Assembly: GCA_000004695.1 (NCBI GenBank)
Contig: CM000153.2
Location: forward strand, 2,880,001-2,944,000
Reading direction: 5' to 3'
Origin: Dictyostelium discoideum
Lineage: Eukaryota
DNA length: 64,000 bases
The notes beneath the pieces are model-generated. The model saw only the letters and a list, made by a program, of their open reading frames with translations, ran no database searches and was not told where the DNA came from. Made by a program: the position numbers and the translations under genes. Below, piece after piece: positions 22,514 through 27,503 of the stretch (its first letter is position 1; the number at the start of each line of letters is the position of its first letter).

Positions 22514-22867
22514 TTAACCTCCGCTGACTGGTGGTATAATGGCAATTTCATCATTAGAATTAATTTTAATATCTTGGTCTCTTGAAATGTATTCTTGATT
22601 TACTGCCAATAAGCTAACTTCCAAAGTCTATTTAAAAATTAGAAATAGTGAGCACAGCACTTTTAACAAATTAACTTTTTTTTTTTTTTTTTTTTTTTTA
22701 GAAAATTAATAAAAACATACAGATGATATTTGTGGATATATATGTTTAAGCTTTCGAATTAAATTGAATGATGTACTTTCATCAAGTGGAAGATCAATAA
22801 ATATAGAATCTTTTCCTATAACTTCCTTTACCTTTGCAAATAATAATATTTTAAATTGATTTGACAT
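22514..22867 (-). CDS. Molybdopterin synthase small (sulfur-carrier) subunit MOCS2A/MoaD. join(complement(22721..22867),complement(22514..22627)), 86 aa. Not in the ORF track.
   Basis: MSNQFKILLFAKVKEVIGKDSIFIDL… ubiquitin-like fold. The C-terminus …DEIAIIPPVSGG* is the diagnostic MoaD Gly-Gly end. Intron donor tct|GTATGT, acceptor aaatAG. Confidence 0.7.
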
Positions 22868-23242
22868 CTTGTAATTATACTATATTTTTTCAAAAAAAAA
22901 AAAAAAAAAAAAAAAAAAAAAAAAAAAATGCTAACTTTTGTAAAATAAATTAAAAAAAATTAAAAATTAAAAAAAACCAAATAAAGGAGGTAATAAAAAA
23001 AGGTTTAAAATTTATTTAAAATAACATTACTAATTCAGTAAAGTTTATTTTTTATTGTTTTTTTTTTTTTTTAAAGAATTTAAAAATATTAAAGATAGGT
23101 TTTAATTCAAATTAATTGATTAAATAATTGTAGATTTAAAAATTATCATTTGTTTAGTACAAATTAAAATATTAAAAAAATTAATTTTTAATAATTCCTG
23201 TAAAAAAAAAACTAAAAAAAAAACTAAAAAAAAAAAAAAAAA

Positions 23243-23902
23243 CTAAATCGGAATAGGAATTTCCAAATCACTGTTGTTATCATTATTATTATTACTATTA
23301 TTATTACTAAATATTGGTTCATTATTATTATTATTGTTATCAGTACTACCACTACCACCACTATTATTATTATTATTATTATTATTATTATTATTATTAT
23401 TATTATTATTATTATTATTATTATTATTATTATTATTATTATTATTATTATTATTATTATTATTATTTAAATTTGTTAAAGGTATAGGACTTCTATGATT
23501 TTTATCTTTAACTTTTTTAAAATACCTTTTAAAGGATTTGTACAAGTCAACTACTGTTTTATCACCAGTTATGATATCAATAGTACCACCTATATAACTT
23601 GATAAATTACCACCTGTACCTGCAGATAAAAATATACCCACGATTCGATATACTAGTGGGAGTCCCTTTCCAACTAAGGGGAAATTTTCATATTCTTTAC
23701 AAACTAATACAATTCCAAGAACTAAACCACCAATGACACCAAACACAGTTGCCAAAGACCGATTATTTGAATTACTTAATCTAATTAACATCCTTTTAAT
23801 TACATTTTCTTTTTTCTTTTTACTTTTATTGATATGTTGTCTTGATGATACTGATGATGGTGTATTAATTGATTGTGGTGAGTTTTGGTTATTTATTATC
23901 AT
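23243..23902 (-). CDS. Hypothetical small membrane protein with a glycine-zipper-like TM pair and a long poly-N tail (219 aa).
   Basis: FGVIGGLVLGIVL and SAGTGGNLSSYIGGTID (GxxxG-rich), then (ATT)n-encoded poly-Asn. Confidence 0.4.
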   Translation of the reverse strand: MIINNQNSPQSINTPSSVSSRQHINKSKKKKENVIKRMLIRLSNSNNRSLATVFGVIGGLVLGIVLVCKEYENFPLVGKGLPLVYRIVGIFLSAGTGGNLSSYIGGTIDIITGDKTVVDLYKSFKRYFKKVKDKNHRSPIPLTNLNNNNNNNNNNNNNNNNNNNNNNNNNNNNNNNNNNNSGGSGSTDNNNNNNEPIFSNNNSNNNNDNNSDLEIPIPI

Positions 23903-24230
23903 ATTGTTTTATTTTTTATTTTTTTATTTCAAATGAAATAGTGATATTAATTTTTAAAAAACCATAAATAGAAATTAAATAAGAATAAATTTTTTAAAAA
24001 AAAAAAATAATAAAATAAAAAAACCACACAAAAGTGTTTAATTAATGAAATGAAAGTAAAATGTTAAAAAAAATGAATAAATAAAAAAAAAAAAAAATAA
24101 AAAAGGGGTTTGTCAAAGGTCGAAAACTATCATTCAATTAAAAACTTATTTTTATTTTCATCTTTTTTTTTTTTTTATTTTTTTTTTATTTTTTTTTTTT
24201 TTTTTTTTTCGTTCGTTTTTTCATTTTTAA

Positions 24231-24238
24231 TCCCATAA
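24231..24238 (+). promoter_or_regulatory. DUSE (Dictyostelium upstream sequence element, TCCCATAA) ~55–60 nt upstream of U3 copy A.
   Basis: Exact match to the [A/T]CCCA[C/T]AA consensus at the expected spacing upstream of the U3 start. Confidence 0.6.
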
Positions 24239-24290
24239 TTTATATATTATTAATGGTTAAAATAAAAGAAATGTTTTATTGAAATTTAAA

Positions 24291-24505
24291 AGTTATGACC
24301 AAACTCTTAGGATCATTTCTAGAGTATCGTCTATTAAAATTATTCATCAATAATTTTTCCTCTTTCACAGCTAGGATGATGATATACACTCACTACACGA
24401 AAGCGTGAAACCGTTATTATCGAATGATTCATTTATTCTTTATTAACATTGATGACCGTCTAATTCAGGGATGAATTGGTTGTGTGGTGGGATTCGTACT
24501 GGCTC
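24291..24505 (+). ncRNA. U3: U3 small nucleolar RNA (box C/D), copy A.
   Basis: 5' region …CTTAGGATCATTTCTAGAGTATCG is the U3 box A/A' (compare the human GGATCATTTCTATAGT). Also present: box C' GGATGATGA, box B-like AGCGTGAAACCG, box C TTGATGACC, and a 3' end followed by a T-run. Same 215-nt sequence in 4 copies. Confidence 0.75.
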
Positions 24506-25080
24506 TTTTTTAATTTAATTAATGAAAAAAAACCAAAATAATTTAAGTTTTTTATTTAATATTGTACTAAATAAAAAATATTTTTTATTATTTGTTTAAA
24601 ATTAAAATTCTTTGTTTGATAATTAAGAATTAAAAAAAGAATAGTTTCTTAACATTTTAAAATTAAAATTCATAAATAAACTATTAACTATTAATTATTG
24701 TTTATTTCCTTTAATGGATAAACACTGATTTATCAATATTTAAAAAATAAATAAAATAAAATAAAACTATTAAAATTTTGACTAAATTATTTAAAAAAAA
24801 AAAAAAAAAAAAAAAAAAAAAAAAAAAAAAAAAAAAAAAAAAAAAAAAATTAAAATAATTATTCCTTTATTTTATTTATAATGATTTTGTTTTGTTTAGC
24901 ATTGTTTTTTTTTTTTTTTTTTTTTTTTTTATAAACAAGATATTTTTTTATTTTTTTTAATTTCCCAATTTAATTTTAATAAAAAAAATCTTTTATTAAT
25001 TTTTTTTTTTTTTTCATTTCATTTCAAAAAAAAAAAAAAACCAAACAAGAAAATAATAATAATAAAAAAACACATATGCA

Positions 25081-26497
25081 ATGACAAATATAATAAAATC
25101 TTTTATAACTAGAAATACATATTTAAATAAATTATCACCATCACCATACCAATTTAATAAATATTATTCAAATTCAATATCAACACCACCAACACATTCA
25201 TATGAAAAAAAACAACAACCAATTCAAAATGTTGATGATAAAAAATATATTTTAACAGATAGATTTAATAGACATCATACTTATTTAAGAATATCATTAA
25301 CAGAAAGATGCAATTTACGTTGTAAATATTGTATGCCTGAAGAAGGAGTAATGTTATCACAAGCTGATAAAATTTTAACCACTGATGAAATTATTAGATT
25401 ATCAAAATTATTCGTATCAGCAGGTGTAAATAAAATTAGATTCACTGGTGGTGAACCATTAGTATGTTTTATTATTATTATTATTATTATTATTATTATT
25501 ATTATTATTATTATTATTATTATTATTATTATTATTATTATTATTATTATTATTATTATTATTATTATTTACATTATTTATTTATACATATTTATTTTAT
25601 TAATTTTTTTTTTTTAAAAAATTAGGTTAGAAAAGATGTTGAACCATTAATTGAAGAAGTTGGTAAAATTAAAGGATTACAAAAGATTGGAATAACAACA
25701 AATGGAATATTATTAAGTAGAAAATTAGATAGATTACATAAAGCTGGTGTGAATTTATTAAATATTAGTTTAGATACATTAAATTCTGATAAATTCACAT
25801 TAATTACAAGAAGATTAGGTTGGGATAGAGTTTTTCAATCAATTGATAATGCATTAAAATTAGATAATATAAAAGTTAAAGTTAATTGTGTAATAATGAA
25901 AGGTTTAAATGATATGGAGGTAAAAAACATAAAATAAAATTATTAATATTAATATTATATTTTATTATATATATAAATATAAATATACTAATTTTTTATT
26001 TTTTTTATTTTTAGATTTGCGATTTTGTTGAAATGACAAGAGATAAATCAGTAGAAATTAGGTTTATTGAATATATGCCATTTGATGGTAACCTTTGGAG
26101 TGATAAAAAGTTTTTATCATATACTGATATGATTAAAATTATACATGAAAAGTATCCAACATTTAAAAAGTATACAATTGAAGAAGAGGAACCAAATAAT
26201 ACATCGAAAACATATCATGTACCAGGTTTTAAAGGTAAAGTTGGTTTCATTACATCAATGAGTGAACATTTTTGTTCATCTTGTAATAGATTAAGAATTA
26301 CTGCAGATGGAAACCTAAAGGTTTGTCTCTTTGGTAATACTGAGGTAAATCTTAGAGATAGAATTAGAGATGGTGCATCCGATCAACAATTATTAGAAAT
26401 AATAAATGCCGCTGTTTTAAAGAAAAAAGCTTCTCATGCAGGTATGTATGAGATTGCTCAAAATAAAAATAGACCAATGATTTTAATTGGAGGTTAA
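25081..26497 (+). CDS. MOCS1A / MoaA (GTP 3',8-cyclase, radical SAM). join(25081..25461,25626..25919,26015..26497), ~386 aa, ending in Gly-Gly.
   Basis: Radical-SAM CNLRCKYC. Also IRFTGGEPL, the NISLDTL…VNCVIMKG block, and C-terminal [21 protein letters not shown]. The C-terminus …PMILIGG* is the conserved MOCS1A double glycine. Introns GTATGT..AG and GTAAAA..AG; the first intron holds an (ATT)n tract. Confidence 0.85.
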
Positions 26498-26668
26498 TAA
26501 AAATAAAATAAAATAAAATAAAATAAAATAAAATAAAATAATATTAATCAAATAATATAATTTAAAAAAAAAAAAAAAAAAAAAAAAAAAAAAAAAAAAA
26601 AAAAAAATATAGAAAAATCTAAAATTCAAATAAATTTTAAAAATAAATCAATTAAACAAAAGAAAGAA

Positions 26669-27503
26669 GTGAAAAATTATTTATTAAAATTAATAAATTC
26701 TAGTTTTATTAATAGTAATAATAATAATAATAATAATAATAATAATAATAATAATTCAAAATTACAATATATTCAACAAAGAAATTATTCAACCAATAAA
26801 AATAATCAAAACCTGGAAAATAATGAATTTTCACATATTACTAAAGATGGTAAATTGCCAACAATGGTTGATATTTCCGATAAAATCATTACAAAGAGAA
26901 CTGCACATGCACAGTCAATATTGGAATTCCCATCAAATGTTTTATCTCAATTATTAAATTTAGAAAAAAATAATGATATTGATAATGATAATAACATTTC
27001 AAAAAATAAAGAAATAGTTTCTAAAAAAGGACCAGTATTTGCTACATCAATTGTTGCAGGTACAATGGCTGTAAAGAATACTTCAAATTTAATACCATTT
27101 TGTCATCCAATACCAATTGAGTCATGTAAAATAGAAATAACAATAATAGATTCAACAAGTGTAAAAGTAGATTGTATAGTTTCAATGAGTGGTAAAACTG
27201 GTGTTGAAATGGAGGCATTAACAGGTAAGAATAATTTTATTTTTTAGTTTTAATTTTGTTTTTTATTCTTTTTTTTTTTTTTTTTTTTTTTTTTTTTTTT
27301 TTTTTTTTTTTCATTTGTATTAACATTTAACTATTTTTGGAAAAAAATAAAAAATAAAAAATATAAAAAAAAAAGGTGCTACTATTACTAGTTTAACAAT
27401 TTATGACATGTGCAAAGCACTTTCAAAAGATATAGTAATTAAAGAAACAAAGTTAATTTCAAAATTTGGTGGTAAATCCTCGTCTCCACAAATTACAAAA
27501 TAG
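26669..27503 (+). CDS. MOCS1B / MoaC domain (cyclic pyranopterin monophosphate synthase). join(26669..27224,27376..27503). No ATG of its own before the conserved domain.
   Basis: [19 protein letters not shown]…[13 protein letters not shown]…[14 protein letters not shown]|[14 protein letters not shown] is MoaC. The ORF opens at a GTG. The first in-frame ATG is inside the conserved core (…PTMVDIS). Same strand, 170 bp downstream of the MoaA GG-stop. Confidence 0.7.

Follow-up and report, generated by a model that had tools for sequence, protein, structure and literature searches.

The mocs1 locus of Dictyostelium discoideum, a two-enzyme gene in which MoaC is probably produced by splicing past the stop codon of MoaA

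The 64-kb stretch of Dictyostelium discoideum DNA analysed here (contig CM000153.2, positions 2,880,001 to 2,944,000; hereafter the window) contains mocs1, a MOCS1-type gene coding for two enzymes of molybdenum cofactor (Moco) biosynthesis, MoaA and MoaC, and, not far from it, mocs2s coding for MoaD, the MOCS2A-type small subunit (Table 1). The locus has a G+C content of ca. 20%, with poly-Asn tracts in the coding sequence. Neither mocs1 nor its mocs1a isoform nor the fusion is new, all three having been annotated and published: an entry for 'Isoform mocs1a' of D. discoideum is present in UniProt/UniRef (MOCS1_DICDI), and the fused MOCS1 orthologue of this organism was mentioned by Mayr, Roeper & Schwarz (bioRxiv 10.1101/429183). 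The present analysis is a correct rediscovery and, with gene, isoform and fusion all in UniProt and the MOCS1 literature, has little weight as a discovery; its value lies in the details of the splice junction by which the two enzymes are joined.

The first three exons of mocs1 (25081-25461, 25626-25919, and 26015-26497) code for a protein of 385 amino acids (aa), found by exact look-up to be identical to the UniRef entry 'Isoform mocs1a of Molybdenum cofactor biosynthesis protein 1' of Dictyostelium. It is a MoaA-type GTP 3',8-cyclase with the Pfam domains Radical_SAM (E 1.6e-32) and Mob_synth_C (E 7.3e-39), and it ends with ILIGG-TAA, the motif occupying positions 26483-26497. Downstream, MoaC is encoded by the same strand and shares the frame of MoaA modulo 3; its Pfam profile is covered from 1 to 136 of 136 positions (E 7e-43), and the fused mocs1 model carries all three domains. 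An earlier note, based on the DNA sequence alone, had placed MoaA and MoaC in tandem on the plus strand between 25081 and 27503 and had pointed to the Gly-Gly-stop end of MoaA, and the exon structure and the domain matches confirm both statements. Intron 1 contains an (ATT)n microsatellite of ca. 100 nucleotides (nt), which reads as poly-Ile in the frame of exon 1 and enlarges the raw open reading frame (ORF).

The MoaC frame has no start codon ahead of its conserved core and opens right behind a stop, exactly as the earlier note had described. It is open from 26561, directly after a TAA at 26558-26560, and its earliest in-frame ATG, at 26864, lies inside the core, coding for the M of PTMVDIS; between 26498 and 26700 no ATG was found in any of the frames. 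The 101 codons upstream of this ATG (26561-26863) contain no stop, a situation not met once in 200,000 composition-preserving shuffles of a stretch that is 88% A+T, and the median stop-to-stop distance in the window is five codons. The open stretch includes the sequence F-S-H-I, corresponding to the [FL]-[ST]-H-[IV] motif located ahead of MVDVS in MoaC of other dictyostelids and presumably present in E. coli MoaC as well. The linker is basic and rich in Ser and Asn, and just upstream of the MoaC core it has a conserved R-x-[YF]-S-[ST] motif (QQRNYST). Because as many as 101 codons have been kept open and the F-[ST]-H-[IV] and R-x-[YF]-S-[ST] motifs are conserved, the linker must be regarded as a translated, coding sequence. 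Stop-codon readthrough from MoaA into MoaC is ruled out by six in-frame TAA codons lying between the two ORFs, the MoaA stop at 26495-26497 included. Since there is no AUG in the spacer, translation of MoaC has to arrive via splicing from MoaA or to begin at a non-AUG codon; the only obvious candidate of the latter kind, GTG at 26669, was rejected, as it is replaced by GTT in D. citrinum.

Among all the GT...AG pairs that give an uninterrupted MoaA-to-MoaC reading, which were enumerated exhaustively, every pair with a credible acceptor ends at ATATAG/ (junction 26612/26613; a slash marks the splice junction), upstream of the 26650-26900 range suggested in the earlier note. Two donors are in frame with this acceptor. 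Donor A, CAG/GTATGT at 26441/26442, interrupts in phase 1 the Gly codon of ASHA-G-MYE; its use would remove an intron of 171 nt (26442-26612) and yield a 613-aa fusion joined as ...KKKASHA/EKSKIQ..., with 18 residues and the stop lost from the MoaA end. It is the donor that had been noticed inside MoaA exon 3 as lying 19 codons before the stop, a count that includes the stop itself. Donor B, GAG/GTTAAT at 26492/26493, is located at the second Gly codon and would give an intron of 120 nt (26493-26612) and a 630-aa fusion joined as ...PMILIG/EKSKIQ.... With either donor the C-terminal Gly-Gly is destroyed. The GG-stop of MoaA, the start-less but translated MoaC frame, and an in-frame GT-AG intron capable of joining the ORFs together support the MOCS1A/MOCS1B-like organisation proposed for this locus. 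We put at about 85% the probability that a splice-generated MoaA(deltaC)-linker-MoaC fusion is the only form in which D. discoideum makes MoaC, MoaA being made from unspliced or early-terminated RNA.

Both kinds of mRNA have been found in a relative. A fused protein of 602 aa (P0010) is encoded on at least seven contigs of ca. 2 kb, each comprising one uninterrupted ORF with short untranslated regions, which come from the Joint Genome Institute (JGI) samples 3300028160 and 3300028164 and from the Logan runs SRR8437430 and SRR8446436. One of them, L008, was aligned with the genome of P. violaceum; the aligned blocks are 76-87% identical and leave out the introns of that species, which identifies contigs of this type as spliced mRNAs of a Polysphondylium-like dictyostelid. 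The fused contigs L008-L011 are spliced at ...GCTTCTCATGCAG/, the proteins being joined as ...KKKASHA/VEIL.... A second protein, P0019 (396 aa), comprises MoaA only, with the GG-stop end; it is encoded on contig L012 from the sister sample 3300028163, from which the other introns have been removed and which past the junction position reads GTATGTATGAG...GGTGGATAA. L012 and L008 share 1,202 nt of 99.9% identical sequence and split exactly after GCTTCTCA(T/G)GCAG, where L012 continues with GTATGTATGAGATTGCC...ATTGGTGGATAA (GTATGT) and L008 with TTGAAATCTTGG..., giving ...ASHA/VEILVLCF.... In the Polysphondylium-like dictyostelid, the MoaA mRNA with its GG-stop thus coexists with a fusion mRNA, whose junction uses a donor homologous to that at 26441/26442 of the window. 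The idea that CAG/GTATGT serves as a bypass donor is borne out in these transcripts, and the L008/L012 pair is the strongest support for donor A, although it is evidence from a relative and not from D. discoideum itself. The MoaA-only contig L012 ends 20 nt past its stop.

The locus was compared in six other dictyostelid species, and in all six genomes MoaC lies downstream of MoaA with the same orientation. The arrangement in D. cf. discoideum and D. citrinum is that of D. discoideum, with no ATG of its own in MoaC, GGT as the donor A codon, and a common frame for the two ORFs. GGT is likewise the donor A codon in D. purpureum and P. violaceum, which have an in-frame ATG in the linker and the two ORFs in different frames, for which in-frame acceptors exist. 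In T. lacteum (L002 7060-7300), MoaC begins with its own ATG 56 nt past the MoaA stop (MNRVFYNFPKN...) and the Gly codon is GGA, which provides no donor. In C. fasciculata (L004 7352-9319), MoaC has its own ATG (MIKNLLVGRSLTS...) and is located 1.3 kb downstream of MoaA, with an opposite-strand gene between them; the MoaA tail SLGGNNNMHEIS has no homologous Gly codon. The GT of donor A is conserved in six dictyostelid sequences, i.e., the five genomic loci of D. discoideum, D. cf. discoideum, D. citrinum, D. purpureum, and P. violaceum, and contig L012, and the TATAG acceptor is kept in the three closest species, D. cf. discoideum and D. citrinum among them, while the interior of the intron diverges. 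The species devoid of donor A are those with a convincingly independent MoaC; this correlation is only suggestive, given the small number of species, their relatedness, and the preference for GGT among the Gly codons. The MOCS1 arrangement has apparently undergone fission within the Dictyostelia, T. lacteum and C. fasciculata appearing to have reverted to a separately initiated MoaC.

Several observations weigh against a fusion made with donor A in D. discoideum. The fusion is not universal in the Dictyostelia, the MoaC proteins of T. lacteum and C. fasciculata having their own ATG and a presequence-like N-terminus, and an in-frame ATG is found in the linker also in D. purpureum and P. violaceum. 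The GGT-ATG-TAT sequence of donor A is almost fully set by the conserved G-M-Y residues and codon bias, so that its conservation taken alone is weak evidence. Existing gene models disagree, with donor B used in P0002, P0003, and P0006 and donor A in P0007 (D. cf. discoideum) and P0008 (D. citrinum). Three Logan contigs carrying the exon-3 ORF (L013-L015), the only ones found, are 100% colinear with 25551-26523, introns included, and are thus DNA-derived and uninformative as to splicing. A search for D. discoideum transcript fragments with the linker protein retrieved nothing, probably because the poly-Asn tracts spoiled word selection, and one with the linker plus MoaC, which was not exhaustive since the known models of D. 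discoideum strains were not listed either, returned only MoaC of other species.

The observations on T. lacteum and C. fasciculata raise the question of whether D. discoideum MoaC could be expressed independently, from its own promoter in the A-rich spacer, by reinitiation on a bicistronic mRNA, or from the internal ATG at 26864 or a non-AUG codon (GTG 26669). Such independence is apparent in the two species with their own MoaC start, and in C. fasciculata another gene parts MoaC from MoaA; moreover, the D. purpureum annotation gives a 167-aa MoaC starting with MPTMVD, and a start at 26864 would retain the whole Pfam MoaC domain. It would, nevertheless, leave unexplained the translated region upstream of 26864 with its conserved motifs, and neither the ATG-free spacer nor the unconserved GTG offers a start for it. 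In addition, a fusion mRNA is expressed in the related dictyostelid, and translation of human MOCS1B from the bicistronic mRNA is reported not to occur (bioRxiv 10.1101/429183). An independently expressed MoaC is, on balance, improbable in D. discoideum, and the spliced fusion remains the preferred explanation.

As regards the donor of this fusion, donor A is the probable main one in D. discoideum, if with only modest assurance, and donor B is the less likely candidate; both may be used, by analogy with the human type II and type III transcripts. Were donor B the one used and donor A silent, the mechanism would be the same, with only the last Gly and the stop removed, as in type II. Donor B shares the acceptor at 26613 with donor A, its GT exists in D. 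citrinum, D. cf. discoideum, and D. purpureum, and it was chosen in the models of three D. discoideum-group assemblies named above; most animal gene models likewise join right after PMILI(G), and splicing at the GG codons has been demonstrated by experiment in Neurospora crassa nit-7 (PMC7232280). Donor B is, however, the weaker site: GTTAAT has T at +3 and no G at +5, while the four constitutive introns of mocs1 and mocs2s all start with GTA (GTATGT, GTAAAA, GTAAGA, and GTATGT), a pattern that donor A fits and donor B does not. This argument is based on those four introns and on general knowledge of U1 pairing, as a literature search provided no usable consensus of the D. discoideum 5' splice site. 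Furthermore, donor B is absent from P. violaceum and from the Polysphondylium-like species, whose Gly codons are GGT GGA and thus contain no donor B position, and the transcripts there show donor A. The donor B models are themselves predicted, and for two sister assemblies the predicted junction is at donor A. That D. discoideum uses mainly donor B is accordingly possible but rather unlikely.

The models in question, deposited at NCBI for sister strains and species, are fusions of 597-623 aa, and that of P. violaceum (P0011) also uses donor A. The 613-aa and 630-aa fusions of strain AX4 had no exact match in the protein collection searched. For one and the same gene, models joined as ...PMILIG/EKSK... 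exist beside models joined as ...ASHA/EKSK... or ...ASHA/DKYK... (loci L006 and L007), and at least one of these sets is probably mis-modelled. In practical terms, the present analysis flags the disagreement over the bypass junction (...ASHA/EKSK... versus ...ILIG/EKSK...) in the gene models of the D. discoideum group, and the transcripts of the relative back the upstream donor.

The sequence features described above suggest how mocs1 could serve both enzymes with a single promoter and a single ATG (25081). When the last, alternative intron is kept, translation would stop at ILIGG-TAA and yield active MoaA, the GTP 3',8-cyclase, whose Gly-Gly is needed for activity. The region just past the stop (26495-26607) is made up of (AAAAT)n with several AATAAA motifs, followed by an A run of ca. 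45 nt. Judging from these motifs, it could act as an intronic polyadenylation site, in which case the MoaA mRNA would be monocistronic rather than bicistronic. When the intron is removed, the GG-stop would be skipped, most likely through splicing of donor A at 26441/26442 to ATATAG/ at 26612/26613, with the weaker donor B at 26492/26493 perhaps used additionally or instead. The spliced mRNA would then code for the MoaA(deltaC)-linker-MoaC fusion of 613 or 630 aa, the sole route to MoaC. If the fusion behaves like human MOCS1AB and Neurospora NIT-7AB, it would enter the mitochondria and then be cleaved within the linker, possibly near the conserved R-x-[YF]-S-[ST] motif, so that MoaC is set free. 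The basic, Ser/Asn-rich linker with this motif provides the sole hint of an internal targeting and cleavage signal. D. discoideum, a tractable haploid model, lends itself to asking why MoaC has to be produced in fused form.

Two known systems are similar to the one described here. Human MOCS1 type I mRNA is bicistronic with only MOCS1A translated, while types II and III code for a fusion, which has an internal targeting signal and is cleaved in the linker (bioRxiv 10.1101/429183). As in Dictyostelium, a single gene comprises MoaA first, with the GG-stop, and a downstream MoaC ORF that is not translated alone, and alternative splicing drops the GG-stop and joins the ORFs via a linker into a fusion lacking the catalytic GG. 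Even the two junctions have counterparts, one near the stop (type II, like donor B) and one ca. 18 residues upstream, after ...HA (type III, like donor A). The two systems differ in that the human GG-stop tail forms a cassette exon (exon 9), whereas that of Dictyostelium is the 5' end of a retained intron, which amounts to an alternative 5' splice site or intron retention. Moreover, there is no evidence of alternative first exons in Dictyostelium, its Asn/Lys-rich linker is unrelated in sequence to the human one, and splicing and processing in D. discoideum are inferred. Structurally closest to the Dictyostelium layout is N. crassa nit-7, in which the lone intron encodes the GG motif and the stop, so that unspliced mRNA gives NIT-7A and spliced mRNA gives NIT-7AB, NIT-7B being released by proteolysis after mitochondrial import, which requires the fusion (PMC7232280). 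In both, a single alternative intron holds the GG codons and the stop, but the nit-7 donor is located at the GG codons (like donor B), unlike the upstream HA/G donor of the dictyostelid transcripts, and nit-7 has only that one intron. Plant cnx2 and cnx3 and bacterial moaA and moaC code for the same enzymes with the same chemistry, but as separate genes; T. lacteum and C. fasciculata, with the own ATG of their MoaC, look closer to this state, whereas the MoaC ORF of D. discoideum has no start codon and depends on that of MoaA.

The position of donor A recurs outside the dictyostelids, which bears on the age of the MOCS1 splice switch. In the set of 124 homologues retrieved, the fusion proteins are joined either right after PMILI(G) or right after ...[KR]xxH[AG]. 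The latter type was found in dictyostelids, Balamuthia, Glomeromycota, some insects, and several transcript-like contigs. Genomic DNA of Balamuthia reads ...CATGGAG/GTATGTTTGAC... and that of Paraglomus ...CACGCAG/GTATGTTTGAA..., each followed by the NRPMILIGG-stop tail, i.e., with the same architecture as in the window. In the moth Phthorimaea (L018), the GG-stop tail is a separate cassette exon, located ca. 0.8 kb downstream of ...KKPQHA and beginning after AG in the same phase-1 Gly codon; it resembles human exon 9 as described (bioRxiv 10.1101/429183).

These data permit the tentative and rather doubtful proposal that the donor in ...K-K-x-x-H-A/G-M-[FY]... is one ancestral alternative splice site, older than the split between Amoebozoa and fungi/animals. 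Dictyostelids, Balamuthia, and Glomeromycota would then have retained the donor as an alternative 5' site and left the GG-stop tail intronic, in animals the tail would have become a cassette exon, still at this phase-1 position, and the switch would have been lost at least twice in the Dictyostelia, in T. lacteum (GGA and a MoaC with its own ATG) and in C. fasciculata (separate MoaC). If so, MOCS1A/AB would be among the oldest conserved alternative-splicing switches. The donor sequence G/GT-ATG-T(T/A) is, however, nearly forced by the conserved G-M-[FY] residues, and because of this, common ancestry and repeated recruitment are inseparable here. A protein from the transcriptome of the amoebozoan Stereomyxa (P0014) reads ...NRPMILIGG and continues, with no stop, into an in-frame linker and MoaC; it may be a true read-through fusion or represent a different splice solution.

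Table 1. Features of the mocs2s-mocs1 locus and other elements of the window discussed in the text
Feature	Position	Strand	Description
mocs2s exon 2	22627-22514	minus	end ...PPVSGG-TAA
mocs2s intron	22628-22720	minus	donor TCT/GTATGT, acceptor AAATAG/A
mocs2s exon 1	22867-22721	minus	ATG at 22867
small ORF	23243-23902	minus	219 aa, between mocs2s and mocs1
mocs1 exon 1	25081-25461	plus	presequence-like N-terminus; radical-SAM CxxxCxxC motif (CNLRCKYC)
mocs1 intron 1	25462-25625	plus	TTA/GTATGT...AATTAG/G
(ATT)n microsatellite	25468-25570		within mocs1 intron 1
mocs1 exon 2	25626-25919	plus	radical-SAM domain
mocs1 intron 2	25920-26014	plus	GAG/GTAAAA...TTTTAG/A
mocs1 exon 3, part common to both isoforms	26015-26441	plus	Mob_synth_C; end ...KKKASHA + G
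alternative tail	26442-26497	plus	coding in MoaA-only isoform; intronic in fusion if donor A used
rest of bypass intron	26498-26612	plus	(AAAAT)n with AATAAA motifs, long A run, five in-frame TAA, acceptor ATATAG/
mocs1 exon 4	26613-27224	plus	84-codon linker (EKSKIQ...QQRNYSTN...) before ATG 26864, then MoaC domain
mocs1 intron within MoaC	27225-27375	plus	CAG/GTAAGA...AAAAAG/G
mocs1 last exon	27376-27503	plus	MoaC C-terminus
GATA zinc-finger gene	28294-30216	plus	immediately downstream of mocs1
AnmK-like ORF	35859-37292	plus	478 aa
duplicated unit, first copy	47713-51348		plus-strand ORF 47713-48147; minus-strand ORF 48532-51348 (939 aa)
duplicated unit, second copy	52573-56143		plus-strand ORF 52573-52917; minus-strand ORF 53405-56143 (913 aa)

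The second Moco gene of the window, mocs2s, was correctly recognised in the earlier note as MoaD/MOCS2A at 22514-22867 on the minus strand. Its spliced product of 86 aa is identical to Q54NM8/EAL64879.1 of D. discoideum AX4 (exact look-up) and belongs to the ThiS family (Pfam, E 1.9e-13), the MoaD/MOCS2A small subunit with its C-terminal GG. The gene shares the GG-ending MoaD with the bicistronic MOCS2-type genes, in which the MOCS2A and MOCS2B ORFs overlap, and differs from them in that no MoaE was found in the window; as the STT3 gene ends at 22292, only ca. 220 nt beyond the mocs2s stop, mocs2s is not a bicistron of this type. A Pfam scan of all the window ORFs of at least 55 aa found no MoaE, MoeA, MogA, or MOCS3/ThiF-type gene in the 64 kb, which rules out a larger Moco cluster. 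Of the cluster of Moco genes proposed earlier, the linkage of MoaD and MOCS1 stands, but it comprises only these two genes, with an unrelated one between them.

mocs2s and mocs1 are arranged head-to-head with their start codons 2.2 kb apart, and are separated by an unrelated small ORF with no Pfam match. The latter, with its predicted hydrophobic segment and long poly-Asn tract, looks like a small membrane/poly-Asn gene; its position is kept in D. citrinum, D. cf. discoideum, and D. purpureum, and it is absent between the pair in P. violaceum. The linkage is found also in D. citrinum and D. cf. discoideum, and in P. violaceum MoaD and MOCS1 are head-to-head and directly adjacent, 266 bp apart, so that the linkage predates the Dictyostelium/P. 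violaceum split. In D. purpureum, T. lacteum, and C. fasciculata, MoaD lies nowhere within 6 kb of MOCS1. Whether the proximity is anything more than a chance neighbourhood without functional meaning, as opposed to a eukaryotic pathway cluster, is an even question. The unrelated gene separating the pair in D. discoideum, the absence of MoaD from the 6 kb around MOCS1 in three species, and the lack of any further Moco gene in the window speak for chance, whereas the retention of the pair in the other three species speaks against it, as does a rough estimate, not a computed one, that with few Moco genes in a genome of ca. 34 Mb, a neighbour within 2 kb would be expected with a probability of the order of 1e-3.

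The GATA zinc-finger gene lying immediately downstream of mocs1 is syntenic in D. purpureum (L001 8895-10463), T. lacteum (L002 8214-9653), and P. violaceum (L005 8926-10460), and in Dictyostelium species it is followed by a gene for an oxysterol-binding protein. Further along the window there is an ORF showing a full-length match to AnmK (PF03702, E 6.5e-122), a bacterial-type anhydro-N-acetylmuramic acid kinase, which may have been acquired horizontally. Finally, the window contains a tandemly duplicated unit, whose two minus-strand paralogues both begin with MDDPFRYKKKLKIENNNN and have no Pfam match, each lying near one of two paralogous plus-strand ORFs.

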